A stretch of 22,667 nucleotides of DNA from a virus. Taxonomy: Duplodnaviria > Heunggongvirae > Uroviricota > Caudoviricetes. The notes under the pieces are model-generated. The model worked only from the letters and a program-made list of their open reading frames with translations. It had not been told where the DNA came from and ran no database searches. Location of the stretch: positions 1 to 22,667 of IMG/VR virus record IMGVR_UViG_2778261501_000002; one strand, written 5' to 3'. This document shows, one piece after another, positions 8,491 to 22,667 of the stretch. Positions within the stretch are counted from its first letter, which is position 1. Each line of letters begins with the position of its first letter. The translations under genes were made by a program, and so were the position numbers.

Positions 8491-9530
8491 AGGCTGAAGC
8501 ATGGCGGGTCAGCAAACTTGGTGAAATACCTGATATAACGTTCGAGGAAGCGTGTGTCAGGTGGCTTGAAGAGAAAGCACATAAAAAATCGCTGGACGAT
8601 GACAAAAGCCGGATCGGATTCTGGCTTCAACATTTCGCAGGAATGCAACTAAGAGACATTACTGAATCAAAAATTTATTCAGCAATGCAGAAAATGACGA
8701 ACCGGCGTCATGAGGAAAACTGGAAACTCAGGGCAGAAGCATGCAGAAAAAAAGGGAAACCTGTTCCAGAATACACGCCAAAACCAGCGTCCGTTGCAAC
8801 GAAGGCTACGCATCTTTCATTTATAAAGGCCCTACTAAGAGCCGCAGAGCGTGAATGGAAAATGCTGGATAAGGCACCAATTATTAAAGTGCCTCAACCA
8901 AAGAATAAACGGATCCGCTGGCTGGAGCCCCATGAAGCACAAAGGCTGATTGATGAATGTCCGGAGCCATTAAAGTCTGTTGTTGAATTTGCACTGGCAA
9001 CAGGCTTAAGACGCTCGAACATCATCAACCTTGAATGGCAACAAATAGATATGCAGCGCCGGGTGGCATGGATAAACCCGGAAGAGAGTAAATCAAACCG
9101 CGCAATTGGCGTTGCGCTGAATGATACTGCATGTCGCGTATTGAAAAAACAAATCGGGAATCATCACCGTTGGGTATTTGTGTACAAGGAAAGCTGTACC
9201 AAACCAGACGGAACGAAAGCGCCAACAGTAAGGAAGATGCGGTATGACGCAAACACAGCCTGGAAAGCGGCGCTGAGACGGGCTGGTATTGATGATTTCA
9301 GATTTCACGACTTGAGACACACCTGGGCAAGTTGGCTGGTTCAAGCCGGAGTCCCGTTGTCAGTGTTACAGGAAATGGGAGGCTGGGAGTCTATCGAAAT
9401 GGTTCGTCGATATGCTCACCTTGCACCTAATCACCTTACCGAACACGCACGGCAAATAGACTCGATCCTGAACCCATCGGTCCCAAATTTGTCCCAGTCA
9501 AAAAATAAGGAAGGTACTAATGATGTGTAA
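8367..9530 (+). CDS. int: Tyrosine integrase (lambdoid P22/DLP12-type)
   Basis: 387-aa ORF, GAGGA SD 6 nt upstream of ATG 8367; conserved HDLRHTW and RRYAHL catalytic motifs; strong resemblance to enterobacterial prophage integrases as recalled. Confidence 0.92.
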
Positions 9531-9702
9531 CTTATTGATTTTAATGGTGCCGATAATAGGAGTGTAACACGCGATAAATCTTGTGTTCGGGTCTTCTTCT
9601 ACGACCTTCGCAACTACCTGATTTAACGATTTTTACGCACACTGATAATCTGGCATTCATCATGCACATGATAAACGCCCCTAAACTTTAACGGGGTGGA
9701 AA

Positions 9703-10926
9703 ATGAAATACAAGCCGGATCAATACATCATATCTGATAGTTACGGAGTTTATTACGTCAGGATTTCAATTCCTGTATGGCTTCGTAATGCATTTGGTGG
9801 AAGAAAAACTCTCGTCCGTAGTCTGAACACTTCCGATCTTCGTGTGGCTCGTAGGAAGCGTGATGTTATAGCCGACGAATTTCACCACATCAGGCAAATT
9901 GCAGAGCCGCCAAAACCGGACAGCTTGCAGGACACGATCAGCTTTTTAAAGAGCGTGGCTAAGTACGCGAAAGCTGCCCCGAAAGCATCAGCTCCGATTA
10001 TCTACCAATGCCCCTCTCTGAATAAGATGTTAGAGATTTACCTCACGCATAACGCTGATCGCCTGAAAATGGGAACATTAAGCAAGACCAGAAAAGCCGT
10101 TGAACTGTTCCTGAATTACCTGCGAAAGAAGGATGTTGAACTAAACGATATCAACCGTACCACCGTTACAGGCTGGCTTGATCATCTCCGAGAGACAAAG
10201 GCAGTCCAGACAGTGGCTAACTACCTATCAGCAATGGCAAACATTCTCGATCTTGCCTCTTCCCGATACCAGGACGCCCCACCGCTGGAAACTAACGTGT
10301 TCAGGGGGCATAAACTCAACACAGCGCAGAGCCGCCAGAGTTACGAGGCATTCACGGACGAAGAAATTACGAAGCTCATTAGCACGTTTAACAAGTTAGG
10401 AGAGGACGAATTAAGGGATGTGAGCGCCATCGCCGCTTATAGCGGAATGCGCATCAATGAAATAGCCAGTTTGAAATCTGACAATATCCGTGAAGTTGAG
10501 GGGGTGTTATGTTTCGAGGTGACGGAGGGTAAGACACGCAATGCGGCGCGGTTGGTTCCACTTCATAGTGCGATTAGAAAAATGGTTCTGGAACGCTGCC
10601 AGAAGCCGCACAACGGCTTTTTATTCTACCGTGCAAGTGTGACCAAGAGACAGGACGGCAAGCGCTCCTCATGGCACGTAAACCGCTTTGGACGGCTTAA
10701 ACGCGATATTCTCCCAGGGCAGGAAAACAAGGTGTTTCACTCGTACCGCCATGCAGTGATCAGTAAGCTAAACGCCGCCGGAGTGGATGAATCTCGTATT
10801 GCCTTGCTCGCGGGTCACTCATTTGGAGAAACTGAGTCTTTCAAGACGTATTCGAAGAGTGTTCCTGAGCGTATTATGAAGGAGTTAGCGGGGTATATTG
10901 AATTAATAAATTACAACGTCCAGTAA
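9703..10926 (+). CDS. Tyrosine recombinase/integrase (second, distinct integrase)
   Basis: 407-aa ORF; catalytic motifs MRINEIASL (box I Arg), HSYRH, GHSF, and Tyr in FKTYSK; unrelated in sequence to the upstream integrase. Confidence 0.85.
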   Translation: MKYKPDQYIISDSYGVYYVRISIPVWLRNAFGGRKTLVRSLNTSDLRVARRKRDVIADEFHHIRQIAEPPKPDSLQDTISFLKSVAKYAKAAPKASAPIIYQCPSLNKMLEIYLTHNADRLKMGTLSKTRKAVELFLNYLRKKDVELNDINRTTVTGWLDHLRETKAVQTVANYLSAMANILDLASSRYQDAPPLETNVFRGHKLNTAQSRQSYEAFTDEEITKLISTFNKLGEDELRDVSAIAAYSGMRINEIASLKSDNIREVEGVLCFEVTEGKTRNAARLVPLHSAIRKMVLERCQKPHNGFLFYRASVTKRQDGKRSSWHVNRFGRLKRDILPGQENKVFHSYRHAVISKLNAAGVDESRIALLAGHSFGETESFKTYSKSVPERIMKELAGYIELINYNVQ

Positions 10927-10931
10927 TTAAG

Positions 10932-10950
10932 GGGGGATTATACATCCCCC
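10932..10950. terminator. Hairpin between convergent genes (bidirectional terminator candidate)
   Basis: GGGGGAT-tatac-ATCCCCC, 7-bp stem, between the integrase stop (10926) and the 92-aa gene stop (10957); T-rich flank on the minus-strand side. Confidence 0.45.
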
Positions 10951-10956
10951 GATAAC

Positions 10957-11235
10957 TCATTTATTCCATTCGTTTTGAATTTGATTCTCAACTGCTGGCA
11001 AAAGGTTATACCAGGAAGCAGAGTTATTCTTAGCATCAACAACAATCAACTTATCATCGCTATCCATCGCTGCCCGAACTTTTCTGGCAGCCTCTTCAAC
11101 CGAATAATTCGAATTTACGTACCAGTTCGACTCGGTAACTTTTGCCCAGTTGCCCAAGGCCTTGATAGCATCATGCACAGCAGCATAATCTTTGGTTTTG
11201 ATCAAGTCATAGGTTACAAACAAGTTGTTAGCCAT
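10957..11235 (-). CDS. Hypothetical protein (92 aa)
   Basis: GGAGAG SD 6 nt upstream of ATG 11233-11235; alternating strand/helix pattern suggests a small alpha/beta fold; no family recognised. Confidence 0.5.
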   Translation of the reverse strand: MANNLFVTYDLIKTKDYAAVHDAIKALGNWAKVTESNWYVNSNYSVEEAARKVRAAMDSDDKLIVVDAKNNSASWYNLLPAVENQIQNEWNK

Positions 11236-11293
11236 TTAATTCTCTCCAGACATTCAAATGAATAAGCACCGCTATGGGCACTTTGAGATATTT

Positions 11294-11422
11294 TTATTTC
11301 TTAGCTTTCTTGGTAGGGATTTTGATAGTTTCAGTTATCGTAGTATCAGGATGTCGTTTAGCTTCAATGGGCTTAACAAACTGACCAGTTATCGCAGAAC
11401 GAACTACTGTTTTCTTAGCCAT
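11294..11422 (-). CDS. Hypothetical small basic protein (42 aa)
   Basis: GAGGTG SD 5 nt upstream of ATG 11420-11422; lysine-rich; not in the supplied track (under 60 aa). Confidence 0.35.
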   Translation of the reverse strand: MAKKTVVRSAITGQFVKPIEAKRHPDTTITETIKIPTKKAKK

Positions 11423-11573
11423 AAAAACACCTCATCTTGGAGATAAAGAGTGAACTGCTTACCCTTTTAAGGGTAAGGGACAAACGAAGCGGCGTCAAAG
11501 AAAAACACCACATATACACATCCTTTACAAACCGAGCGCAATATGTGGTATTCCCATGTGATTTACATCACAA

Positions 11574-13424
11574 TCATCCCCCTGTGGATGACTGACCGCT
11601 CAAGGCTGATAGCGTAAGGCTACGAGTGAATGAATCCGCACTCGCTTTTGCAGACCAGTCGATATAGTCAGACAATCGAGAAACATCACTTTGCAGAGTC
11701 AATCCCACTTGTGGATTCACTTGTAGGTTGAATATCGGGTTCAACGTGTACGCTGGCGCGTTGCTGCTGTTGAGCGACATTGCCGAAGCACGGAGATTTT
11801 CCCCTGAAAGGCTGTATTGATTAGTCGCTGTCCCTGCTTGCTGATTACCAACGCCCAACCAATCCATGATAGCCGGAGCCACTGAACGGGTATCAAACCC
11901 CGTTTTATCCTGAATCCAATCGGCCGTAGCATTCGCAGAGCCACCCACAGCACCATCATAAAGATTTTGAACAGCAGGTTTCTTAGTATCGCTAAACCAT
12001 TCAGGGTGTTGTTGGCGGAGAGTACTGTTAAGATCAGACACTACGCTGGAGATTTCTCCAACAAAGCCCGTCACCTGTTTAGCCAGGTCGCCTAATCCCT
12101 CTCCGAGCATACCAGCAGATTCTGTTATCACTTTGGTGTTCTTCACCAGGTCGTCACCACCATCAGCAAAGCCTTTCATAAAGCCTGTAAACATGCTGTT
12201 ATCAACGCCATTCATGAGATTACCCATCGCTACACTCAGATCACCATATGCAAGAGTTTGCTTGATCTGCTCCTCGTTAAGAGTTTGACCACTATCGACA
12301 AGCTGTTTCAGCGTCTTGTTATATTCTGCACCGTTGTTCATGAACATATCGGTGTAGTGCATCAGGTCATCACCTAAACTCTCTATAAGCGTACCAATCT
12401 GAGCCTGTGACATACCACGGCGTTGCCCTTCATTGGTAACTGCTTGAAGTAGATCAGCAGGACGATCCTGGAAGGATTTAATCTGTTCTTTGCCCCATCC
12501 AAACTTATTCATAATAGAAGTGATACCACCATCGCCGCCTTTCCATTCGCCATTTTTAAACTGGCTATCGTTCAGGGTCATAGCGATACGTTCACGTACA
12601 TCTTTGAAATTGTCCGTCACTTTATCGACATTGGCGCTATCAACTCCGTGTTGCTGCCCCCATGCCACCATCGTTTTAACTACGTTAGGATTAGTCTTAA
12701 CAAGTTCCGATTTTCTAACCAAGTCAAGATTTTCATTCCCTTTGTCAACAATTCGCTGCCCCACTCCGAGGGAGCCAGCCGTTAACGCAAGGCTTCCTAA
12801 TACCCCACCACCGACGATAGGAGCATTCCCGCCCTTCTGAGCCTTTAGCTTAGTGGCTGCTGCGGCATACTGGGTACGCTGTGCCTGTGTCACTTTCGCT
12901 TGTTGTGCGGCTTCTCTGCGTAACAGGGTTACACGCTCGCGTATAAGCGCATTCATACGTTGAGAGCTAATATTCCCCTTCGCAAACTCTTCGCTTTGCT
13001 GATGAATATAACGTAACGCTTCATACTGAGATTTAGGATCAAGCCCGTATTTACCTTTAATTCCTGACACTTGTAGCCCTGCATGGCGAAGTTTAAGCTC
13101 GGCTGTCTCTTGGCGCTTCTGTAGCTGCTGCTTCGCTTTCAGATTGGCCTTTTCATCCCTGGCTTTCTGCTTCTCCGCCGCACGTTGGGCTTTCATTTCC
13201 TTCGTATCACGAGGCTTATCATTAAAACGTGCATCATCGGCTTGTTGACGGGCTTTCTGTCTGCGCTGCTTCAGATCCTGGAAGCGAATCTTGGGATCGG
13301 CTATTTTCTGGAAGTGCTTTTGAAGGTTATCCGCTGCGGCCTTAGCCTCTGCAATACTCCCTTTGTCAACGGTGAAAGTTACGGTGTTGACGATCTTACT
13401 TGTATTAATCTCAAGCATCGCCAC
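11574..13424 (-). CDS. Phage tail tape-measure-like protein
   Basis: 616-aa ORF with a long charged coiled-coil N-terminal region and Gly-rich hydrophobic segments (GGGVLGSLALTAGSLGVGQ). Start is ambiguous: GTG 13424 or ATG 13418. Confidence 0.45.
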   Translation of the reverse strand: MAMLEINTSKIVNTVTFTVDKGSIAEAKAAADNLQKHFQKIADPKIRFQDLKQRRQKARQQADDARFNDKPRDTKEMKAQRAAEKQKARDEKANLKAKQQLQKRQETAELKLRHAGLQVSGIKGKYGLDPKSQYEALRYIHQQSEEFAKGNISSQRMNALIRERVTLLRREAAQQAKVTQAQRTQYAAAATKLKAQKGGNAPIVGGGVLGSLALTAGSLGVGQRIVDKGNENLDLVRKSELVKTNPNVVKTMVAWGQQHGVDSANVDKVTDNFKDVRERIAMTLNDSQFKNGEWKGGDGGITSIMNKFGWGKEQIKSFQDRPADLLQAVTNEGQRRGMSQAQIGTLIESLGDDLMHYTDMFMNNGAEYNKTLKQLVDSGQTLNEEQIKQTLAYGDLSVAMGNLMNGVDNSMFTGFMKGFADGGDDLVKNTKVITESAGMLGEGLGDLAKQVTGFVGEISSVVSDLNSTLRQQHPEWFSDTKKPAVQNLYDGAVGGSANATADWIQDKTGFDTRSVAPAIMDWLGVGNQQAGTATNQYSLSGENLRASAMSLNSSNAPAYTLNPIFNLQVNPQVGLTLQSDVSRLSDYIDWSAKASADSFTRSLTLSALSGQSSTGG

Positions 13425-13608
13425 CGCCTTTTTTACTCACCAGATAATTAAGTGCATCTGATACACTACGCCCACGATGTAATAACTGACGTAGATGACC
13501 GTGATCTATTTCAAGCACACGACACACTCCCGCCAGATTTAATAACTCTTCTGCTGTTTCAGCATTTACGGCGAGGTGAAGCCCCGCGCTTTTTACAATC
13601 ACTTGCAT
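13411..13608 (-). CDS. Hypothetical protein (65 aa)
   Basis: GAGGAA SD 6 nt upstream of ATG 13606-13608; stop overlaps the start of the tape-measure-like gene. Confidence 0.4.
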   Translation of the reverse strand: MQVIVKSAGLHLAVNAETAEELLNLAGVCRVLEIDHGHLRQLLHRGRSVSDALNYLVSKKGGGDA

Positions 13609-13630
13609 TTATCTTTCCTCATTCTGGAAA

Positions 13631-13665
13631 TAAAAAAGGGCGGGAACACTGGGGAGATGTTCCCA
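13631..13665 (-). terminator. Rho-independent terminator downstream of the capsid gene
   Basis: On the minus strand: GGGAACA stem with 10-nt loop, then GCCC and TTTTTTATTT. Confidence 0.5.
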
Positions 13666-13727
13666 ACGTTCACACGCCCTATTCAATAGCCTGATTATTT
13701 CCAGCGGGTCAGGCTCCCGCTTGCTCA

Positions 13728-14759
13728 TTAAGCAGTGATGGTGATCTTCACCTGCATACCTAACGCATGGTTCACTGGTAATGCGCTGTTTTCGTGCATA
13801 ACGTGGTAAGCATCGCCGCGCTCGCTCAGGTAGCCCCAAGAGTAGTATTCAGCAGGTGCAGCATCGATCAGCGCAAAGTTACCAGAGGCAGCGCCGTAGA
13901 TGTTCTGATAAGCATTTGTGCCTTTACTGAACACCGGAACCGCCACCATGTCAGCATCATCTGGCATCTGTGCAAGGATCAGCGGATCTGTCACTTTAAC
14001 AATGTCGATAGGCGCACCAGGTAGGCTAAACGTACTAACACCAGGGAGAAGCTCGTGACGCTGGTAGAATAGGTTACGGTCGTCATATGGCGCTACATAC
14101 TGGAACGCCTTAGACATACTGTCAGAGAAGCGAATCTGGCTAAATGCAGCAGGTTTAGCGAATACGATCACTCGTTCAATCTGTCCAGCCAATCCACCTG
14201 CGGCAGCCTGAACTTTGTCTAAGATCGCATCAAAATCCTGTGCCGCTGTCGCTGTGCTCACGCTGGCTGTCATTGGCACCACACCGAACAGTTCAGCATA
14301 AGAGATCAGTAGGTCATCAGTTGCAGGCGTATAAACTTCACCTTTGAACAGAGCACGGGCCAGGTAAGACTCACGGGTACGCAGATAAGCAATCTTATGT
14401 TTGCCAGTGTATTCGGTGTACAGGTCGGTAACGGTTTGCTCGTAGTCCGTTCCCTGCACTCTGCGGCCTTGTACGTCTACAGGTTTAAACTCATCTTCCC
14501 TTGCAAACCAAGGAATCTCGATAAGGTATTCTTTGCCATTCTGACGCGCGGTAGTGTCGTGGTTTGATGAATAACGGCTCTGCGGGGTGTTAAACAGGCT
14601 GTAGTTATCATCCAGAAGCTGTGTCACCACCACTTTCGGATTCTGAACACCTACCCCGTCGAATAGGTCGAGGGCATTCATAAGATAGTTACGTTCCGGC
14701 AGAGCCTGGAAGATTGGCGCTAAATCGACCATCTCACGCCCAATTGCGATTTTACTCAT
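13728..14759 (-). CDS. Phage major capsid protein, lambda gpE-like
   Basis: 343-aa ORF, AAGGAAG SD; size and C-terminal pattern (WGYLSERGDAYHVMHENSALP) resemble the lambda gpE family as recalled; preceded by a roughly 110-120-aa gene as in the lambda D-E arrangement. Confidence 0.5.
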   Translation of the reverse strand: MSKIAIGREMVDLAPIFQALPERNYLMNALDLFDGVGVQNPKVVVTQLLDDNYSLFNTPQSRYSSNHDTTARQNGKEYLIEIPWFAREDEFKPVDVQGRRVQGTDYEQTVTDLYTEYTGKHKIAYLRTRESYLARALFKGEVYTPATDDLLISYAELFGVVPMTASVSTATAAQDFDAILDKVQAAAGGLAGQIERVIVFAKPAAFSQIRFSDSMSKAFQYVAPYDDRNLFYQRHELLPGVSTFSLPGAPIDIVKVTDPLILAQMPDDADMVAVPVFSKGTNAYQNIYGAASGNFALIDAAPAEYYSWGYLSERGDAYHVMHENSALPVNHALGMQVKITITA

Positions 14760-14775
14760 TATTTATCTTCCTTGA

Positions 14776-15135
14776 TTAAGAGGTGAAGAATGGACGGCAT
14801 ACGAACCCTTTGGATTCGAGCGTGGTGATAGCTGCGGCGTGATTAGCTGCGTGCAGGTTGTCGGCTTTCAGTGCTACGAAGCTACCAACATTAGGCGCAC
14901 GTAGGACATTCACGGTTTTACCGTCGCCAGCACTCACGAAATCACTTACCACCACAAAGGCATCATCGCCGGAGGTGTATAGAGCGCCATCAGCGCCGAT
15001 AACATCGCCGCATTCAATATCTGCTGGCAGGTCGAAAACACGGCCTTCTACGACTGCAAAAGAATCAGTGGCGTAGCTCAATACGTCAGTGAAACTCTTA
15101 CGAATTGGGAAAAGTTCGGTTAGGTCTACAATCAT
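14776..15135 (-). CDS. Putative head decoration-like protein (119 aa)
   Basis: Position and size relative to the capsid gene; ATGA overlap with the upstream 71-aa gene. Assigned from gene order only. Confidence 0.3.
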   Translation of the reverse strand: MIVDLTELFPIRKSFTDVLSYATDSFAVVEGRVFDLPADIECGDVIGADGALYTSGDDAFVVVSDFVSAGDGKTVNVLRAPNVGSFVALKADNLHAANHAAAITTLESKGFVCRPFFTS

Positions 15136-15347
15136 TGTTGTTTGATTTCCTTGGATTTGATTGCGATCCGTTCCTGCATACTAAGTTGAGGTGTGTCCTC
15201 AGAAGGGAAATACTGGTCTACAGCTTTTTCTATTTCTTCAACGGTACATCCTGCCATTTCAGCCACTTTAGCTATTAACTCAGGATTAACTTGAATCACT
15301 TCGGATTTGTATTTTAGGATTCGGTCGCGATTGTTTATTAAGAACAT
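15132..15347 (-). CDS. Hypothetical protein (71 aa), first gene of the head-gene operon
   Basis: AAGGAA SD 7 nt upstream of ATG 15345-15347; translationally coupled to the next gene. Confidence 0.4.
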   Translation of the reverse strand: MFLINNRDRILKYKSEVIQVNPELIAKVAEMAGCTVEEIEKAVDQYFPSEDTPQLSMQERIAIKSKEIKQQ

Positions 15348-15415
15348 TGTGTTGTTCCTTCGCGTTATAACTGCGTTTATCCTTCCATTGATAACGGAAG
15401 TGTTACATGCAGATT

Positions 15416-15440
15416 GTTAAAAAGGGGCGATTAAGCCCCT
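15416..15440 (-). terminator. Rho-independent terminator candidate
   Basis: On the minus strand: AGGGGC-uuaauc-GCCCCU followed by UUUUAAC. Confidence 0.4.
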
Positions 15441-15732
15441 GGAGAATATGCCCTTGTTAGAAAGCATTCTGTTAAAATCATTTTCGTTTCGGAGGATTAT
15501 GATGTTAAAGAATGGCTTCTTGAAAAAATGAAGGGTGCAACTGTTACGAATAACAGAAGTAGGATCGCCCGTCATTGCTCCCACTTCAAAACAGAAGCCC
15601 TTCTGTCATGGCGAGAAGTGGGAATGGAATCTCAATATCACCACTGGAATAGTAATAAGAGATTGCCAGCCTGAACGTAACTACCGCTGACGGCGTTTAT
15701 TCAGTCTGACTACATTCATCCTAACGGAATGA

Positions 15733-15966
15733 ATGAGCAAAGAGCGAATGCCCTTTCTGAAAAAGTCGGAGATGCGCGGTGATTGCGATGCAATACCAAC
15801 ACAACGAGATATTACATCCCGCGCATTCCTTCGGAACAAACAAGACAAAGAACCAACACTTTCAGAAATAGCATTCAGAGGGAGAGAATGCCGCTATGGG
15901 AACGGCATTCTCAAGGAGTGCGTATTGACATACGAGGGTGAAGTGATTCGAATACTTACCCTATAA
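15733..15966 (+). CDS. Hypothetical ORF (77 aa), weakly supported
   Basis: Open frame with only a weak SD; convergent with the gene at 16014-16352. Confidence 0.2.
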   Translation: MSKERMPFLKKSEMRGDCDAIPTQRDITSRAFLRNKQDKEPTLSEIAFRGRECRYGNGILKECVLTYEGEVIRILTL

Positions 15967-16013
15967 CTCATTATGACACATATAGCACATAATGTCAAGA
16001 CATTTAGTAACTT

Positions 16014-16352
16014 TTATGTTATGGCGCATTCTTCCGCGATCTGGATGGAAAGCTCTCCGAGTTCAACGGTGATGTATTGCAGAGAGCAAGCAAGCTCCTC
16101 AAGGTCATTAGCTACACGCCACGCTTCTTCTGGTGTGATCGAACTGCCGTCACGCTGCACCAAACGAGCTACAGACGTTTGCAGATGTTCAAGGGCAGTG
16201 ATTGCCTGTTCAGTGTATTGCACCGCTTCCAGAAGCGCGGAGGGCGTTCTCTCACGCCACGCTGCATTAACAAGCTGTAAGGTTGGTAAATGCCAGTTGT
16301 CGTGGAAAGAGTTAATTAGGGTGTTCACTGTGTCCATAGTTTTATTATTCAT
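16014..16352 (-). CDS. Hypothetical protein (~112 aa)
   Basis: AGGAAAA SD upstream of ATG 16350-16352, which overlaps the stop of the upstream 127-aa gene; the track's longer 144-aa start at 16448 is less likely. Confidence 0.4.
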   Translation of the reverse strand: MNNKTMDTVNTLINSFHDNWHLPTLQLVNAAWRERTPSALLEAVQYTEQAITALEHLQTSVARLVQRDGSSITPEEAWRVANDLEELACSLQYITVELGELSIQIAEECAIT

Positions 16353-16728
16353 TGTTTTCCTTGTCGTCAAAGAGAATATCAAACTCTTGTGTGTGCTGGG
16401 ATAGCCCCCAGGTTTGACAATACCCAATATAATCGGCGTAATGTTCAAATCCTGCTATTTGCCATTTCTTGAGATGGCTACTATCTATAATATATTCGCG
16501 TCTGCGTCGTGGTTTGTAATAAACGTTATCCGTTGACGATAGAACATCCTGCAATAGTTCAAACTCTAATCCATTTGGTACTACTGCGGGATATTCTTTA
16601 ATAGTTGTCACCATCTCACCAGGAATAGACTCTCGTGCGAGGTCTTGTAGAGAAGAGGTGTATTTACGTTTGCTGATGCGTGTGGCTTTTTCGATTCTAA
16701 CAAGGTTACTTCGTTCTTTTCGTCCCAT
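16345..16728 (-). CDS. Hypothetical protein (127 aa)
   Basis: GAGGAA SD upstream of ATG 16726-16728; basic N-terminus. Confidence 0.45.
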   Translation of the reverse strand: MGRKERSNLVRIEKATRISKRKYTSSLQDLARESIPGEMVTTIKEYPAVVPNGLEFELLQDVLSSTDNVYYKPRRRREYIIDSSHLKKWQIAGFEHYADYIGYCQTWGLSQHTQEFDILFDDKENNE

Positions 16729-16832
16729 TCATTCCTCGTAGAGGGGAAACTCCTTGTCTGGTTATAACGTAAACGCCATAGAATATGGTGAACCACCATA
16801 AAGCAGTAATCATAAAAGTTTCCCGATTGTTG

Positions 16833-17294
16833 TTATTTAGTCGTAAGTGTAATGTCGCATCCTTTACCGCGACCAGGTTTGATTAACGTAGTAGTTAGAT
16901 AATCATTGCGGCGAAGCTTGCGAATCGCACTGGATACAGTTGCCACACTTATCCCCAACACTATCGCTATTGACTCCTGTTTCACATTTGTTAATGATGG
17001 CAGTGATTCGAGGTGCATTAATACCAGACGTTCCGAAGGAGACAGATTCTTATCGTGAAGATGTGGGGATGTCATTTTACATTCTATCTCTTTCGGTGGC
17101 TTCATCGCTGCATTGAATAGCGTAACAAGAGCATTAGCGTAACTTGATTCACCTCGCTCAGCGTAAACATCTACAAGTTCTTGCGCTTGTTCGAATGCAA
17201 CACCTCTTTCAACTTCTGGATTTAATAAACTGGCAAGATGGATGATGTTAAGATCACGTTCGTTGTATTGTTTGGGTATAACCGTTTTCAGCAT
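16833..17294 (-). CDS. HTH-domain protein (153 aa), putative regulator or replication-associated
   Basis: C-terminal winged-helix-like segment (VKQESIAIVLGISVATVSSAIRKLRRNDYL); start overlaps the upstream gene's stop. Confidence 0.5.
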   Translation of the reverse strand: MLKTVIPKQYNERDLNIIHLASLLNPEVERGVAFEQAQELVDVYAERGESSYANALVTLFNAAMKPPKEIECKMTSPHLHDKNLSPSERLVLMHLESLPSLTNVKQESIAIVLGISVATVSSAIRKLRRNDYLTTTLIKPGRGKGCDITLTTK

Positions 17295-18028
17295 AAATGT
17301 TCTATTTCCTCGTAGATTGGTTTAAGTTTTGGATTCTTCTCTGTGTCCAGGTATCCGTTAATAAGTAGCCATCTGATTTTCGGATGTTGTGAAACTGGTA
17401 GATTCTTTTCAGGATTCTCCCATTCATCCCGATAACCCTCAAGAAAGTTTAAATTAACTGGCTCTATCTTAATATCTTTAGCTGGAATGGAGGCGGGTTT
17501 CTTCGTAGGCATTTTCTTTGGCTTCTCCGGCTTCGGATCTGCTTTGGCCTCTTCTGGCACTGACTGCTGTTTTTCTTCCTCTGGCGCTACGTCTTCTTTA
17601 GCTTTGCCAAACACGGGATGTTTCAGACAATCTACCCATTCCGGCGCGGAATCACGTTCCATCGCATTACGATCACGTTCAAAGGTGAAGTTTTGCGGCG
17701 TGAGTGGCGTTATAGTCCATTGGTTAGAGCGCTTTGGCTTATTACTGGCGATCAGTCCGATTTTCTTCAACTTTGCAACAATACGTGTTGCCGTAGCCGA
17801 GCTGACACCAATACTTGCACCAAGTTGATCAATGTCATCGTAATAAGTACCGCCCAACTCTATCGCAAAGCGATAATAACGATGGCGCATTCTGACGTAA
17901 AACTGCTTATCAGCAGGAGACAGGGACTCTGTTACGCCTGTTTTAAGATTGGTGATCCTGGTGCATTCGTTAAATGCGTCTTCGGTGTTGGTGAAACTAA
18001 AAGCCTTACTGTTTATAATGTCAGTCAT
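17288..18028 (-). CDS. HTH-domain protein (246 aa) with K/E/P-rich linker, putative regulator or replication initiator-like
   Basis: HTH segment (IDQLGASIGVSSATATRIVAKLKKIGLI), low-complexity charged linker, then a C-terminal domain. Confidence 0.5.
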   Translation of the reverse strand: MTDIINSKAFSFTNTEDAFNECTRITNLKTGVTESLSPADKQFYVRMRHRYYRFAIELGGTYYDDIDQLGASIGVSSATATRIVAKLKKIGLIASNKPKRSNQWTITPLTPQNFTFERDRNAMERDSAPEWVDCLKHPVFGKAKEDVAPEEEKQQSVPEEAKADPKPEKPKKMPTKKPASIPAKDIKIEPVNLNFLEGYRDEWENPEKNLPVSQHPKIRWLLINGYLDTEKNPKLKPIYEEIEHLC

Positions 18029-18042
18029 GTTAGGGTGTATCC

Positions 18043-18219
18043 TTATTTGGTAGAACGTTCTCCGTTCTTAATTGATGTGGAAAGTGTGGTTGCAGCGTCA
18101 ATTAACATCTCCTGCACTGTTACGCCTCTCGCTCGCGCCTCTTTGAACAAAGTACTAAACACTTCATCCGGCAGTTTTACGAATGTTCCGGCTGGTTTCT
18201 TCTTCTGGATTTCGCTCAT
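18043..18219 (-). CDS. Small ribbon-helix-helix-like DNA-binding protein (58 aa)
   Basis: AGGAG SD 7 nt upstream of ATG 18217-18219; predicted strand then helices (GTFVKLPDEVFSTLFKEARARGVTVQEMLIDAA); not in the supplied track (under 60 aa). Confidence 0.45.
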   Translation of the reverse strand: MSEIQKKKPAGTFVKLPDEVFSTLFKEARARGVTVQEMLIDAATTLSTSIKNGERSTK

Positions 18220-18237
18220 TTGGTTTCTCCTTCTGGT

Positions 18238-18486
18238 TTATTCGTTGGTGGTGGTTTCAGCCTGTTCAGCTTTCCATTGATCGTAAAGTTCGATTCCTTT
18301 ACGCAATCTTTCAGCGTGTTCGAAATATCCTTGCCGTTGTGCGGCTGCTCGCTGGCTGTTTATTGCATTTCGCGTCTGGCTTCCGGCCTTTAAAGCCTCG
18401 AAGACAAGTTCTGGATTAAAATACTTAATTTTGGTTCTCCTTGCGTTAGAAACACAGAAACACCATCCAGGGAGAACGTTAATCAC
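18238..18486 (-). CDS. Hypothetical protein, start uncertain (GTG at 18486, or in-frame ATT at 18429 behind a strong SD)
   Basis: The only strong SD (AAGGAG, minus strand at 18442-18437) sits 7 nt upstream of an in-frame ATT codon; there is no ATG/GTG/TTG within reach of it. Confidence 0.3.
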   Translation of the reverse strand: MINVLPGWCFCVSNARRTKIKYFNPELVFEALKAGSQTRNAINSQRAAAQRQGYFEHAERLRKGIELYDQWKAEQAETTTNE

Positions 18487-19164
18487 GTTGCCTGATAGTG
18501 CGGTGTAAGTTGGATTGTTTGCGTTAGGCTGGATGCCTGAGATGAGGACGGGATGAATGCTTTCATTACCCTACATCATTTACTTTAACATGAAATGATT
18601 TAAATGTCAACACTTATTTAAATCCCTTTCAAATTATAGCGCATTTCCACGTTGTGATCAACTCATTCATGTCATCATAAAACGCGGTCTATCGCTTTCT
18701 AACAGGTTTGAAAGCCTGAGAGTTGCAATCCCCTCCCTATCCTCTCAAATTCGCTCTCAGCGCGTCTGGGGCGTTCCGTTTGCGTTACCGCCGCCCTCTG
18801 GCACTTACTCCCGAAACCAATAGCACAACTACTGAGGGATAACGTTAGTTATCAGGATAGTAGGTGATGGTATTGGATTGAGGCTGGATGAACTGGAGCC
18901 ATCAGCGACCAGTGAATCCTTAGCCGTGGGCTAACTTTGCATGGATGAATGCGGAGCATGGAAGACAGGCAGAAGTTATGCTGAAAGACATTGCGCACAC
19001 GGCGCATAGCTTCTGTGCCTCGTTTCACGAGGGCGAAGCCCTGGCACAATCACAGACAGATGCGCTACGCTGCGTCGTGAGCGGCTGACCGAGTAGCCCC
19101 CAAAGGCGAATCAGGTCACTTGCCAGGCGATACGCGCCAGCAAAGCGAATCTTTAACAAGATCT

Positions 19165-19291
19165 TCTAAAAGCTCTCTTTTAGAGATCGCTTTTAGAATC
19201 TCTTTGTATAGAACATCAATTTGATGTGTAGTTTGCCGATCCATACATCAATTTGATGCGTATCCCATGCATCTATACATCATTTTGATGT
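19165..19291. promoter_or_regulatory. Operator/iteron-like repeat cluster
   Basis: Perfect inverted repeat TCTAAAAG-ctct-CTTTTAGA (19165-19184); three 13-bp palindromic repeats CATCA(A/T)-T-TTGATG at 19214-19226, 19246-19258 and 19278-19290 with exact 32-bp phasing. Confidence 0.55.
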
Positions 19292-20050
19292 ATAACGCCC
19301 CCAACTAACTCTGATTCATCCATGCAACAACACTAAGAGTAACGAGAGGTTATTCCTATCAAAACAACACGATAATCATAGCTAAGCCTATCTTAAATGA
19401 CAGGTAAAGATTGCCGTTGTTACATGGGTAAAGTTGCCATAGTCAGCAAGATAGTAACCATCACTCACTTTGCGTAAAGCCTTGCGCCATGCGGCTCACA
19501 GCGATCATTGTCCACAATGAGGAGTTTCATGACAGGTGCAATGTGCTGAACGAGTTTTCTAAAATGAAACGATGTTTCTTTTTCATGCCAAAATCCACCA
19601 ATTGATTAGCATTCTAATCATTTCATTACACACTCAGTTTCAAGTGCATAAACTCCGCATAATTTGTGCATACAGGCAGGTTAGCCCCGCCCTCGCCTAA
19701 CAACCTTACATTTATCAGATTTAAATCAATGAGATAGACAATAACCACACACAAGCATTGGTAGTGTGATGTTCCGCTGTTGCCGCTGTTCTTCGTGCAG
19801 AGTTGAGGATTTGGCAATGTTCAAACACATGTTTATAAATGCCAACATCATGATTTTGTTCAAGATATTTAGAGGAGAAGAAATTTTCGATCTGGAGGCG
19901 GCCCTGGAGGTCGTTAAGCACTGGACGCAATCGCGCCATTTACCACACACAAGACAGTTCGATTTTTGATCATTTATATTGCAACTTACTGAAATTGATC
20001 ATATTGTTTGTTTCGTTGAGTTTAGATGTGTGTCTTTATGGGAGGGTAAA

Positions 20051-20611
20051 TTGAACAGAGCAGTAGTGTTAGACGAACAGCAAGCCAAAGCGATCAGGGA
20101 GTGGCTAAACGCTCATAACAAGAGCCTGATAGCTGACGTTACGTTAATGATGCAAGCCGCTGTACTGCGTGTGGGGGATGCCGTAGCGTTACGCTTCGAC
20201 GAAGTGATCAACGGTGAGATTGACATAGAAGAACAGAAGACAGGGAAGCGTAAAGCCCTCACTCTCCCTGCTCCAGTGGTGCAGATGATTGCTCGTCGCC
20301 GTGCTGAGTATCCGCATGATGTGCATGTGTTCAGAAGCCAGCGTAACCGATCAATGAACAAGCAAGCGCCTGTACGACGCGAAGAAGTGAGCAAGCAGAT
20401 CGCAGAGGCCGCTAAAGCTATCGGTATTCATGGCACTGTATCAGCTCACAGCTTCCGCAAAGCTGGCGGGAATGCCATCTACAAGCGTTCAGCAAACAAC
20501 ATCGCTTTAGCTATGACCGTGCTTAATCACAGCAACATCACTGACACCAGGCGCTATCTGGATTTAGACAAGCAAGCCGTTAGCCGTGTGATCAATGAGA
20601 TGGACTTATAA
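20051..20611 (+). CDS. Small tyrosine recombinase, catalytic domain only (~186 aa)
   Basis: GGAGGG SD 4 nt upstream of in-frame TTG 20051 (the track start at 19979 is also TTG); motifs LRVGDAVALRF (box I Arg), HSFRKAGG and TRRY (catalytic Tyr); no N-terminal arm/core-binding domain. Confidence 0.65.
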   Translation: MNRAVVLDEQQAKAIREWLNAHNKSLIADVTLMMQAAVLRVGDAVALRFDEVINGEIDIEEQKTGKRKALTLPAPVVQMIARRRAEYPHDVHVFRSQRNRSMNKQAPVRREEVSKQIAEAAKAIGIHGTVSAHSFRKAGGNAIYKRSANNIALAMTVLNHSNITDTRRYLDLDKQAVSRVINEMDL

Positions 20612-20621
20612 GGAGATACGC

Positions 20622-20819
20622 ATGAAACGCTTGCTTGTGCTGACGCTGACAGTAATGCCAGTCCTGGCGAATGCCGGACAGATAACCCTGATTCTCAGTG
20701 ACGAACAGGAGACAGACAACGCGAAGATTTGCGTTTATTCCAACGCCAACTTTACGGAGACAGTGACGCTCAGGCCGTCGCAGCAATGCCGCTACACAAT
20801 GACCTTTGAAGAGGAGTAA
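20622..20819 (+). CDS. Small secreted/periplasmic protein (65 aa) with signal peptide
   Basis: AGGAG SD 6 nt upstream of ATG 20622; N-terminal signal-like MKRLLVLTLTVMPVLANA; two Cys in the mature part. Confidence 0.5.
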   Translation: MKRLLVLTLTVMPVLANAGQITLILSDEQETDNAKICVYSNANFTETVTLRPSQQCRYTMTFEEE

Positions 20820-20877
20820 CAATTGAAGAAGGAAGACAAGCAGATAACCAGCGTGGTCTGGTGCGGTGTATAAGTAA

Positions 20878-21357
20878 TCACTGCTTGGAATCACGTAGGA
20901 TCAGAGACAATATCCACCACCAGCGACGACGCAGCCAACTAACATCACTGAACAGCTTCCCATCAGATGTAGTAACATACACCCCTCCGCGATGATGCAC
21001 CTTATTATGGTGAGCCTTATTGATGAATGGTACTTCTAAGATCATTTCATCACGGGCTTTTAATCGGCGTGGCAACATGGGGCTGATCATGTATTCATCA
21101 CAATGTTCGTTAGAACAATCGCTAAGGCGTCCGCTGGCGGTTACTATGCCCGCCGAACTTATCGTCACATCATGGGCGCTTTTGTTGGAAACATAAATTC
21201 TGTCTTCATACTGATCGCAACCTAAGAAAAGGCGTAGATCTGTTCTGGATTTTAATAGCTGGAAAATGGATAGTGCAAACCCAGCCCATGCGGCAAGCAT
21301 GGTCAGATTATCAACATTAAGCAACCAATCTATCAAAGTTCCATCCCTTGAGAGCAA
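20878..21357 (-). CDS. Hypothetical membrane protein, start uncertain
   Basis: One predicted TM helix (LTMLAAWAGFALSIFQLL); Trp/Arg-rich C-terminus; candidate starts are TTG 21357 or ATG 21300. Confidence 0.35.
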   Translation of the reverse strand: MLSRDGTLIDWLLNVDNLTMLAAWAGFALSIFQLLKSRTDLRLFLGCDQYEDRIYVSNKSAHDVTISSAGIVTASGRLSDCSNEHCDEYMISPMLPRRLKARDEMILEVPFINKAHHNKVHHRGGVYVTTSDGKLFSDVSWLRRRWWWILSLILRDSKQ

Positions 21358-21560
21358 AGATAATTAGCAATTCCTTGATGCTGTAAGTCAGTCAATTGGA
21401 AGTAGGAATCGAGTACGATTATGACTTGCGTGGCATTATCAGCATGAACAGAACCAGGGGTATCAGGAGGAAGCGAACCATCAAGGATGGCAGTAAAGTA
21501 ACCCGATGAGATAGAGACTTTCAGGAAGCAATTGGGTAAAAATTCGTAACGTTCACTCAT
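21333..21560 (-). CDS. Hypothetical protein (75 aa)
   Basis: GAGGTGG SD upstream of ATG 21558-21560 (MSERYEF...); the track's longer 104-aa start at 21647 is less likely. Confidence 0.4.
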   Translation of the reverse strand: MSERYEFLPNCFLKVSISSGYFTAILDGSLPPDTPGSVHADNATQVIIVLDSYFQLTDLQHQGIANYLCSQGMEL

Positions 21561-21723
21561 AACCACCTCATTTTCAGATTGTTTCTGCAAAGCGTACATT
21601 ACGAATTTTATTCTTTTACCGCATTTCAAACCAAATGACAATTCCATTGAATCAGTTGAGGATTTTAACCCTCACCGAAGATAACATAACCTCAAAATGT
21701 CTATCGCTTCATTGAGGAAATGT

Positions 21724-22497
21724 ATGTCTACTGAAAATTTTGTCACCTTCTGGTTAGCCAGAGCCGATCTTCCATACTTTCTTGAACCCCATGAATTTTA
21801 CGTTTCTGAGGCAAGGCGGCGGCTTCTCTCTCAGTTTGGTGATTTAGAACAAGAAGCAGAGAAGAGAGAACAACAGTTTTTGGAGACTACTGCTGAGTAT
21901 TTTGATCAAGATAACGATGACCCAATGGCGGCCTACGAGCAAGCCTATCATGAGGGAATTTATTATGTACGGTCGCTTCTGGAGATGCAAAATACCGTAT
22001 TGTTGGCGTTGACAGCAGGTATGTATCATCAGTTTGATAAAAAACTAAGAGAACATACTATCAAAGAGCTAAGTAATTGGTGTGAAAGAGAATTGATTAC
22101 CCCCATGATCTGGAATTTAACTTTCCATCAGCTAATTGATTTGCTCGAATGGATTGGCCTCACAATCAATGGAACCGAATACGGAGAAAGGATAAAAGCC
22201 TGTAACTTGGTGGTAAACGTATACAAGCATGGAGACGGCCCTGCACATCAAACACTATCAGTTGATCATCCTGAGTATTACCCAAACCCCACCGATGTTA
22301 GAGGCACGCAGATTGTCCCTAACCATGACGATTTACATGTCTCAGAAGATCAATTTGTAGATTTTGCTAACGCAATAACTGCTTTCTGGAACGCGGTTCC
22401 AGAAAATTGTTACTACTCAGATCTTAGAGAAGAACCCAAATGGTTGGATAGAGTTGTGACAAGATTCGAAAAAAAGCATAGGGGCAATAGGGGCTGA
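21724..22497 (+). CDS. Hypothetical protein (257 aa), AT-rich cargo gene
   Basis: GAGGAAA SD 4 nt upstream of ATG 21724 (ATG 21697 is an alternative); no family recognised. Confidence 0.5.
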   Translation: MSTENFVTFWLARADLPYFLEPHEFYVSEARRRLLSQFGDLEQEAEKREQQFLETTAEYFDQDNDDPMAAYEQAYHEGIYYVRSLLEMQNTVLLALTAGMYHQFDKKLREHTIKELSNWCERELITPMIWNLTFHQLIDLLEWIGLTINGTEYGERIKACNLVVNVYKHGDGPAHQTLSVDHPEYYPNPTDVRGTQIVPNHDDLHVSEDQFVDFANAITAFWNAVPENCYYSDLREEPKWLDRVVTRFEKKHRGNRG

Positions 22498-22505
22498 TTA
22501 GCCCC
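22490..22505. terminator. GC-rich hairpin between convergent genes
   Basis: GGGGCT-gatt-AGCCCC overlapping the stop of the 257-aa gene; no clear T-run on either strand. Confidence 0.3.
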
Positions 22506-22508
22506 ATC

Positions 22509-22667
22509 TCAAAACATCAAGTTTGCAGCTCGCGCCAACTTGATTTCCTCTCGCTCTTCCTGCTTCTTAGCAAGCCAGGCTTTCCCCTCTGGTGTTGCCA
22601 GGAATTTACGGGCGTGAATCTTACGGTTGTTGCGCTTCGTGGCTGCTTTTTGGTTAGCTTTTGACAT
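22509..22667 (-). CDS. Small basic protein ORF reaching the window edge (52 aa if the ATG at 22665-22667 is the true start)
   Basis: Open frame from the window edge to TGA at 22509-22511; lysine/arginine-rich; possibly 5'-truncated by the window. Confidence 0.3.
   Translation of the reverse strand: MSKANQKAATKRNNRKIHARKFLATPEGKAWLAKKQEEREEIKLARAANLMF

Follow-up and report, generated by a model that had tools for sequence, protein, structure and literature searches.

Two small genes beside an integrase

We analysed 22,667 nucleotides (nt) of viral DNA assigned to the Caudoviricetes (IMG/VR record IMGVR_UViG_2778261501_000002, positions 1 to 22,667; hereafter the window), focusing on two small minus-strand genes that lie between a gene for a tape-measure-like protein and a convergent integrase gene. 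The upstream gene (11294..11422) encodes a protein of 42 amino acids (aa), and the downstream gene (10957..11235) encodes a protein of 92 aa. Each open reading frame (ORF) was found where the initial annotation had drawn it, preceded by a Shine-Dalgarno (SD) sequence: GAGG at 11433-11430 for the 42-aa gene, with the ATG 7 nt further on, and GGAG at 11247-11244 for the 92-aa gene, with the ATG 8 nt further on. The same annotation had called the smaller protein basic, which agrees with its isoelectric point (pI) of 10.5. Identical DNA was found in nine complete Escherichia coli chromosomes, in which RefSeq labels both ORFs as hypothetical proteins.

The substitution patterns indicate that purifying selection acts on both small genes. 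Between the window and a Klebsiella copy (locus L004), the 42-aa gene differed at 5, 3, and 14 sites in the three codon positions, respectively, with a proportion of nonsynonymous differences (pN) of 0.088 and of synonymous differences (pS) of 0.455. In seven comparisons of the 92-aa gene, pN was 0.11-0.21 and pS was 0.66-0.95, giving pN/pS ratios of approximately 0.14-0.26. Two overlapping plus-strand ORFs (10975..11265 and 11258..11446) were rejected because the substitution pattern by codon position matches the minus-strand frames. Both genes are strongly conserved. Together they make up a self-contained cassette of two genes that travels on mobile DNA. In Enterobacterales, its layout is a promoter, a small gene of the 42-aa type or encoding a DUF3606 protein, a terminator-like hairpin, the 92-aa gene, and a GC-rich hairpin, usually convergent with a tyrosine integrase gene.

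A putative sigma-70 promoter of the cassette lies on the minus strand at 11470..11498, with the -35 element TTGACG at 11498-11493, a 17-nt spacer, and the -10 element TACCCT at 11475-11470. The pattern TTGAC(G/A)-17-(T/C)AnnCT is kept in L004, in two further related loci (L024 and L048), and in the Pectobacterium copies. The site scored below the threshold of the promoter scan (8 of 12), and we infer its use from sequence. Sigma-70-like sites on the plus strand inside the 92-aa gene were discarded, their number being no higher than expected by chance.

The initial annotation had described the pair as bounded by two hairpins. Both are present. The GC-rich hairpin at 10932..10950 (GGGGGAT-loop-ATCCCCC) lies between the stop codons of the convergent integrase and 92-aa genes and has a 7-bp G/C stem (dG -16.2 kcal/mol, z -2.85). 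A GC-rich hairpin of different sequence was found at the equivalent position in all 11 related loci folded, whereas none was found downstream of the 92-aa gene in the copy of Pectobacterium brasiliense (L095). Because the position is constant while the sequence differs, 10932-10950 is likely a bidirectional terminator. The other structure, a near-perfect palindrome of 20 nt (11458..11477), overlaps the -10 element and the transcription start. Its relatives carry uncompensated changes in one arm, so that the structure is not conserved, and these changes coincide with positions 3-4 of the -10 hexamer, which are tolerant of change. We therefore rejected it as a conserved terminator or operator, and it is probably no terminator because it overlaps the conserved promoter-like TTGACG-17-TAnnCT.

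Two further elements were found beyond those hairpins. The first, on the minus strand at 11497..11554, is a strong intrinsic terminator of the upstream operon for the capsid and 616-aa proteins, consisting of a stem of about 13 bp (ACCACATAT...ATATGTGGT) followed by TTTTTCTTT. The 141-nt region containing it gave a folding z of -3.68, and L024, L048, and L004 retain both the stem and the T-run. The second, detected in a terminator scan, is an intercistronic stem-loop with a T-rich tract (11264..11283, minus strand), a terminator-like attenuator that precedes the SD sequence of the 92-aa gene. Its GCGCC/GGCGC-type stem and T-run are conserved with either a 42-aa or a DUF3606 gene upstream, and in the window the stem is weaker, with two G-U pairs. 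Because a separate promoter would not fit between this hairpin and the SD sequence, the 92-aa gene is probably expressed by attenuated read-through. A search of 10700-11800 against Rfam at E ≤ 1 returned no RNA family, indicating that no known type I or type III toxin-antitoxin (TA) RNA is present.

A Cas2-like protein and its small partners

The initial annotation had found neither protein recognisable. This holds for the 42-aa protein, whose family is unannotated, but the 92-aa protein belongs recognisably to the Cas2 superfamily. It matched phrog_1090, a phage family of unknown function, with an E value of 6.4e-23 (residues 3-91 against positions 2-89 of the 90-position profile). Structure prediction, which had been proposed as a check, gave a confident AlphaFold2 (AF2) model from 48 homologues (pLDDT 90.7) with a ferredoxin-like fold of the Cas2/VapD/BPSL1038 type and the expected order of elements. 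A Foldseek search of the PDB placed Cas2, BPSL1038, and the VapD-VapW complex at the top, with probabilities of 0.85-1.0 and TM-scores of 0.5-0.6 at an E value of only about 0.02, and Cas2 chains predominated in the list. We place the 92-aa protein, which stands alone, in the Cas2/VapD/BPSL1038 superfamily of ferredoxin-fold nucleases. A fold search of BFVD returned only uncharacterised viral proteins.

Residues Y9, D10, G28, S36, Y39, and D61 are invariant across the 48 close homologues. In the register of the hidden Markov model, D10 aligns with the position of the catalytic Asp of Cas2, and D10 and S36 sit where VapD and BPSL1038 have catalytic positions. Among 134 representatives of the wider family, D61 was retained in 128, G28 in 127, and a Ser or Thr at position 36 in 114. 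The family is large, borne on mobile elements, and uncharacterised; at E ≤ 1e-3 it numbers 1,898 representatives of clusters formed at 50% identity. When 95 diverse relatives were compared with Pfam, 15 matched Cas2 (E < 0.1, best 8.6e-7) and 10 matched DUF3884; the DUF3884 match of the 92-aa protein itself was sub-threshold. A sub-family of 207-262 aa has two tandem Cas2-like domains (P0135, P0143, P0148, P0189, P0216, and P0226). In the four members whose alignments were read (P0135, P0143, P0148, and P0189), the D61 region of the first domain carries a 5-residue insert and both domains lack the strand-1 Asp, an arrangement reminiscent of VapW-VapD fusions.

The likeness to Cas2 itself (PF09827) comprises the ferredoxin-like fold, a 'YD(L/I)' motif closing strand 1, a conserved Gly that follows helix 1, a strand-3 Ser, and an Asp ahead of strand 4. 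The 92-aa protein differs from Cas2 in its score of 13.7 bits, below the gathering cut-off of 23.8, and in an extra strand and a C-terminal helix with a conserved Trp at its end. Its gene also differs in its surroundings, which contain neither cas1 nor any other cas gene nor a CRISPR array. No cas gene is annotated within 28 kb, the neighbours being the integrase and the tape-measure-like genes; no direct-repeat array was found across positions 11000-26600 of the identical E. coli locus L001, which cover the cassette and its element; and the window contains no second Cas2-like ORF.

Two characterised groups of this fold also stand alone. VapD-like proteins are TA toxins with swappable antitoxins, approximately 50% of them occurring solo, and their toxicity depends on an Asp and a Ser, with SOS being induced (PMC11980593). 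Like the VapD proteins of VapXD, VapYD, and VapWD, the 92-aa protein is a small stand-alone Cas2-fold protein of about 90 aa on mobile DNA (PMC11980593). It also shares with them the strand-1 Asp, which is catalytic in VapD, together with the Ser, an upstream small partner that is swapped by lineage, and many solo relatives, as in about half of the VapD family. The structural match to the Campylobacter jejuni VapD-VapW complex (9kan_D, E 0.036, TM-score 0.47) is at the level of fold only. Unlike VapD, the 92-aa protein has no sequence membership in the VapD models of NCBIfam and Pfam, its partners are the 42-aa beta-beta-alpha-beta protein or DUF3606 rather than the SH3-fold VapX or VapY or the inactive VapD called VapW, its gene is separated from that of the partner by a terminator-like hairpin, and its toxicity is putative only.

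BPSL1038 of Burkholderia pseudomallei, the nearest solved relative, is a double-stranded DNA endonuclease (PMC10491678); its structure (PDB 7vxr) belongs to the Cas2/VapD nuclease sub-family. The published account treats it as a hypothetical protein encoded on the chromosome in seven genera and reports no partner gene (PMC10491678). It ranked third in the Foldseek search (probability 0.99, TM-score 0.56) and was the only Cas2-like solved structure found by sequence, the family profile matching it over residues 15-88 at an E value of 0.087, which is not significant alone. Both proteins are of similar size (about 88 aa for BPSL1038), lie outside CRISPR loci, and have an extra C-terminal helix and an Asp...Ser/Thr-x-W-Y motif. 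The motif of BPSL1038 is D11-X20-SST and that of the 92-aa protein D10-X25-S36 ('TESNWY'), which is analogous, not identical. PDB sequence searches with the single 92-aa protein or with DUF3606 gave chance matches only.

The 42-aa protein and its relatives share the motif R-S/D-A-x-T-G-x-F-[VI]...A-K-R-x-P-x-T-T-V-x-E-T. A profile search with a cut-off of E ≤ 1 found 246 such relatives in Proteobacteria and in Bacteroidota-like and candidate-phyla contigs, and no Pfam domain was present in any of them. They are either single-repeat forms of 38-50 aa or double-repeat forms of 64-76 aa, the latter carrying the motif in tandem (P0252, P0254, P0275, P0286, P0291, and P0301). At least one member of the family bears the UniRef label 'Multidrug transporter'. 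The AF2 model (pLDDT 87.7) showed a beta-beta-alpha-beta mini-fold, for which neither a fold search nor a PDB search with the mini-protein profile found a significant solved relative, the latter giving chance matches only. The best fold match was the beta-beta-alpha finger of the Sda1 nuclease (E 1.2 over 26 residues); it was rejected because the catalytic His and the metal ligands are not conserved, and we treat it as a coincidence of supersecondary structure. Scans with PADLOC and NCBIfam gave no useful match for either small protein, DUF3606, the integrase, or the 616-aa protein.

The cassette moves among islands, phages, and chromosomal sites

In all 92-aa homologues of at least 66% identity, a co-oriented small gene lies upstream, of either the 40-42-aa type or the 59-aa DUF3606 type. 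The spacer between the two genes is constant at 48-58 nt for both partner types, and the upstream hairpin and the SD region are homologous whichever partner is present. Across four island families, the cassette and a tyrosine integrase gene invariably converge, the cassette lying 27-61 nt from the integrase stop codon. The integrases of the other copies are 27-35% identical to that of the window, and the 92-aa proteins 67-82%.

The cassette also occurs in P2-like phages (R18C, P2-EC53, and approximately 20 IMG/VR contigs), where DUF3606 and the 92-aa gene occupy the Z/fun moron slot. ORF23 and ORF24 of R18C were reported by the authors of that genome as morons of unknown function (PMC6823313). 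The 92-aa protein of R18C is 78% identical to that of the window, and its cassette has the same hairpins and spacing; it differs in having DUF3606 instead of the 42-aa protein, and in R18C and P2-EC53 (AJ512682) the cassette is detached from a functional integrase. Most P2-like carriers retain a remnant of 37 aa of an integrase C-terminus directly behind the cassette, which shows that the phage cassette was captured from an integrase-linked island. The remnant lies at 3864-3974 in L002 and 85-195 in L003, with further examples in L027-L046, and in P2-EC53 it overlaps the annotated 'left inverted repeat'.

In Pectobacterium polonicum (L022), P. brasiliense (L095), and P. aroidearum (L097), an intact pair of 40-aa and 92-aa genes lies between adh and thiM (3823-4279), and no integrase or other mobile-element gene was found beside it in any of the three species. 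The mini-protein gene is nearly invariant among these copies, whereas the Cas2-like gene has a mosaic 3' third and is followed by a mosaic hairpin, a pattern that suggests repeated recombination with incoming copies. The cassette is thus mobile among integrase-linked islands, the P2 Z/fun slot, and integrase-free chromosomal sites. The synteny comparison proposed in the initial annotation accordingly showed the pair kept as a unit in islands, in P2 Z/fun slots with the DUF3606 partner, and in Pectobacterium chromosomes.

More distant 92-aa homologues are typically lone genes, often in the opposite orientation to their neighbours. One neighbours a nickase of the P2 gpA type, another follows Zot in a filamentous phage, and others lie beside a primase or a methyltransferase. 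On the Klebsiella ColE1-type plasmid pC51_006 (L094, 5.2 kb, 2090-4879), the homologue lies between genes for an AbiD/PD-T4-5-like HEPN protein and a 574-aa PIN_8 protein. On a second plasmid of this type, pHNLW22-3 (L093, 4.2 kb, 13-810), it is the third gene in a tight operon, after a 72-aa ribbon-helix-helix (RHH)-like gene and a 100-aa gene.

In the window, the cassette belongs to a 13.7-kb element at a tRNA-Thr gene (thrW). A 28-nt direct repeat at 9541..9568, unique in the window, is a copy of the thrW 3' end and marks the left attachment (att) site; its partner is the tRNA-Thr 3' end 13.7 kb away in L001, just past the right end of the window. The element spans 9541-22667 of the window and continues to the tRNA-Thr gene, corresponding to 12642-26372 of L001. 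The tyrosine integrase of 407 aa (9703..10926, plus strand), with a DUF6538 N-terminal domain and a Phage_integrase domain (PF00589, E 2.2e-13; PF20172, E 2.4e-11; phrog_1, E 8.5e-36), stands at the left end and is transcribed inward, and the cassette converges on it. On the other side lies the gene for the 616-aa protein (11574..13424, minus strand), which matched the tail length tape measure family phrog_16051 (E 2.4e-98) and is named TolA in RefSeq. The placement of the pair between a tape-measure-like gene and a convergent integrase gene is thereby borne out.

Deeper in the element, we found a lambda-E-type capsid gene, a replication-initiator-like gene, and a small second tyrosine recombinase gene; no portal or terminase gene was recognisable in the 13.7 kb. 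The element resembles a phage satellite or a mini-prophage, of a type not yet described, and the pair does not lie at the end of a full prophage as had been proposed but in this satellite-like island. The element is rare, a full-length capsid match being present in 14 of 5,426 E. coli genomes. The pair was present in 13 of these 14. The suggestion that it occupies a moron-type slot was right in part: the cassette is self-contained and of an accessory type, with close homologues in the P2 Z/fun slot, but it is a constant part of its element.

Some other features of the window were recorded. Three copies of an 18-nt palindromic repeat, ACATCAATTTGATGTGTA, lie 32 nt apart at 19213-19294, within approximately 1.5 kb (18486-19979) that have no annotated genes; they may be operator sites or origin iterons of the element. 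To the left of the att site (1-9530) lies a degraded prophage with tail sheath and tube genes, terminase fragments, XRE/helix-turn-helix (HTH) regulators, and a P22/IntS-like integrase of 387 aa, in tandem with the 13.7-kb element at thrW. At 5449-7835, the window is approximately 2 kb longer than the otherwise matching strain AR_0128.

Possible functions of the cassette

According to the reading we favour, tentatively and at somewhat less than even confidence, the cassette is a TA-like or phage-conflict (addiction or abortive) module with a VapD/Cas2-like effector. Along the direction of transcription, the order would be the cassette's own promoter, the 42-aa mini-protein, the attenuator hairpin, the 92-aa protein, and the bidirectional terminator. 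The Cas2-like 92-aa protein would act, by analogy, as a dimeric nuclease effector, and the upstream small protein, made in excess owing to the attenuator, would neutralise or regulate it, with DUF3606 as an interchangeable alternative to the 42-aa protein. This reading gains support from the Cas2/VapD fold of the 92-aa protein, because those stand-alone proteins of this fold that have been characterised act either as TA toxins or as nucleases (PMC11980593, PMC10491678). The arrangement of two small co-oriented genes in one transcription unit with a putative promoter of its own is shared with generic type II TA systems. Further points in its favour are the unity of the cassette, with a small gene at a near-constant distance from every close homologue and joint movement of the pair into P2 Z/fun slots and Pectobacterium chromosomes, and the mosaic C-terminal third of the 92-aa protein. 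The conflict-type contexts of the homologues also favour a module of this kind, namely the P2 gpA-side hotspot, the filamentous phage, the primase or methylase neighbours, and the plasmids with Abi/PIN or RHH genes.

Several observations weigh against it. Pairing is not universal: the co-occurrence of the 92-aa gene and a partner is 100% in close homologues, but a consistent partner gene is absent from homologues at 40-58% identity, and none of four distant mini-protein members (five loci examined) has a Cas2-like neighbour. The 92-aa protein is acidic (pI 5.2, family median 6.1), whereas enzymes that act on nucleic acids seldom are. Many relatives dispense with the strand-1 Asp, the residue being D in 97 (72%) and E in 13 (10%) of the 134 family representatives and the Asp being absent from both domains of the tandem members aligned (P0135, P0143, P0148, and P0189). 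No antitoxin DNA-binding fold was recognisable in the 42-aa protein or DUF3606. The genes are separated by the terminator-like hairpin, with no overlap or translational coupling. For these reasons, our confidence stays below even. In addition, the sequence matches to Cas2 and BPSL1038 fall below curated thresholds, NCBIfam gave no VapD or Cas2 model for the 92-aa protein at E ≤ 1, and in PADLOC-DB 2.0 the sole match of the 92-aa protein was Cas2d at E 0.03, while the 42-aa protein matched no model. Within its element families, moreover, the pair is constant rather than variable cargo.

Many of the same facts suit the strongest competing explanation, that the two genes are functionally independent, the 92-aa protein being a solo non-toxic binder or inhibitor (anti-defence or a Cas2 mimic) and the mini-protein having an unrelated role. 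Each family is widespread without the other, and solo homologues, often on the opposite strand, are the classic pattern of single-gene morons; the mostly acidic family, the strand-1 Asp with which many members dispense, and the hairpin between the genes fit as well. However, in five or more independent genomic contexts, every close homologue has a small partner gene at a set distance, and two unrelated partners occupy exactly the same slot. The stretch from the hairpin to the SD sequence leaves no room for a second promoter, and D10, S36, and D61 are invariant in the close family; both points also argue against independence, which we consider unlikely, though it comes nearest to the module reading.

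The constant neighbourhood of the integrase raises the question of whether the pair is an integrase accessory, either a recombination directionality or excision factor or a regulator of int by convergent transcription. The consistent convergence within 27-61 nt of the integrase stop codon in four element families, the retention of the cassette beside integrases that are far more divergent than the 92-aa proteins, the constancy of the pair in these elements, and the strongly basic 42-aa protein would all fit. Against this, Pectobacterium chromosomes keep the intact pair without an integrase, the cassette persists in P2 Z/fun slots beside a dead integrase fragment, and ColE1 plasmids and filamentous phages also carry homologues. 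Known excisionases have an HTH or winged-helix fold, whereas the folds of the two proteins are ferredoxin-like and beta-beta-alpha-beta, and the hairpin at 10932-10950 insulates the cassette from int. We regard a role as an integrase accessory as improbable.

Still less probable, in our view, is that the 92-aa family is a non-CRISPR Cas2 mimic, an acidic decoy that would bind host Cas1 or another Cas2 partner and block spacer acquisition, with the mini-protein as its chaperone or regulator. That the pair encodes virion, tail, or assembly components of the satellite-like element is the least probable reading. In its favour, the pair immediately follows the capsid and tape-measure-like genes and shares their strand. 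Against it, no homology to structural, tail, or assembly proteins was found in Pfam, PHROGs, NCBIfam, or PADLOC, a strong terminator and a separate promoter-like site lie between the pair and the structural operon, and plasmids, filamentous phages, and bare chromosomal sites all carry homologues.

The fold class and the logic of the gene pair are already known. In the libraries and papers searched, the family, its two partner types, and its constant place beside integrases are not described. The cassette is a well-delimited candidate and not a discovery. The analysis further draws attention to satellite-like islands of the thrW type, a small and rare family whose members consistently carry the cassette next to the integrase gene.

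Should the cassette function as a TA or conflict module, a large unannotated branch of approximately 1,900 sequence clusters would be added to the Cas2/VapD story, together with two new partner types, the 42-residue mini-protein family found across phyla and DUF3606. A function would also be assigned to the P2-like phage morons of R18C that had been noted as unknown. If the family were instead a Cas2 mimic, it would represent an anti-adaptation anti-CRISPR of a kind not yet described. Cas2 is thought to derive from VapD-like toxins, and a third stand-alone lineage on mobile elements therefore bears on the origin of CRISPR adaptation modules.

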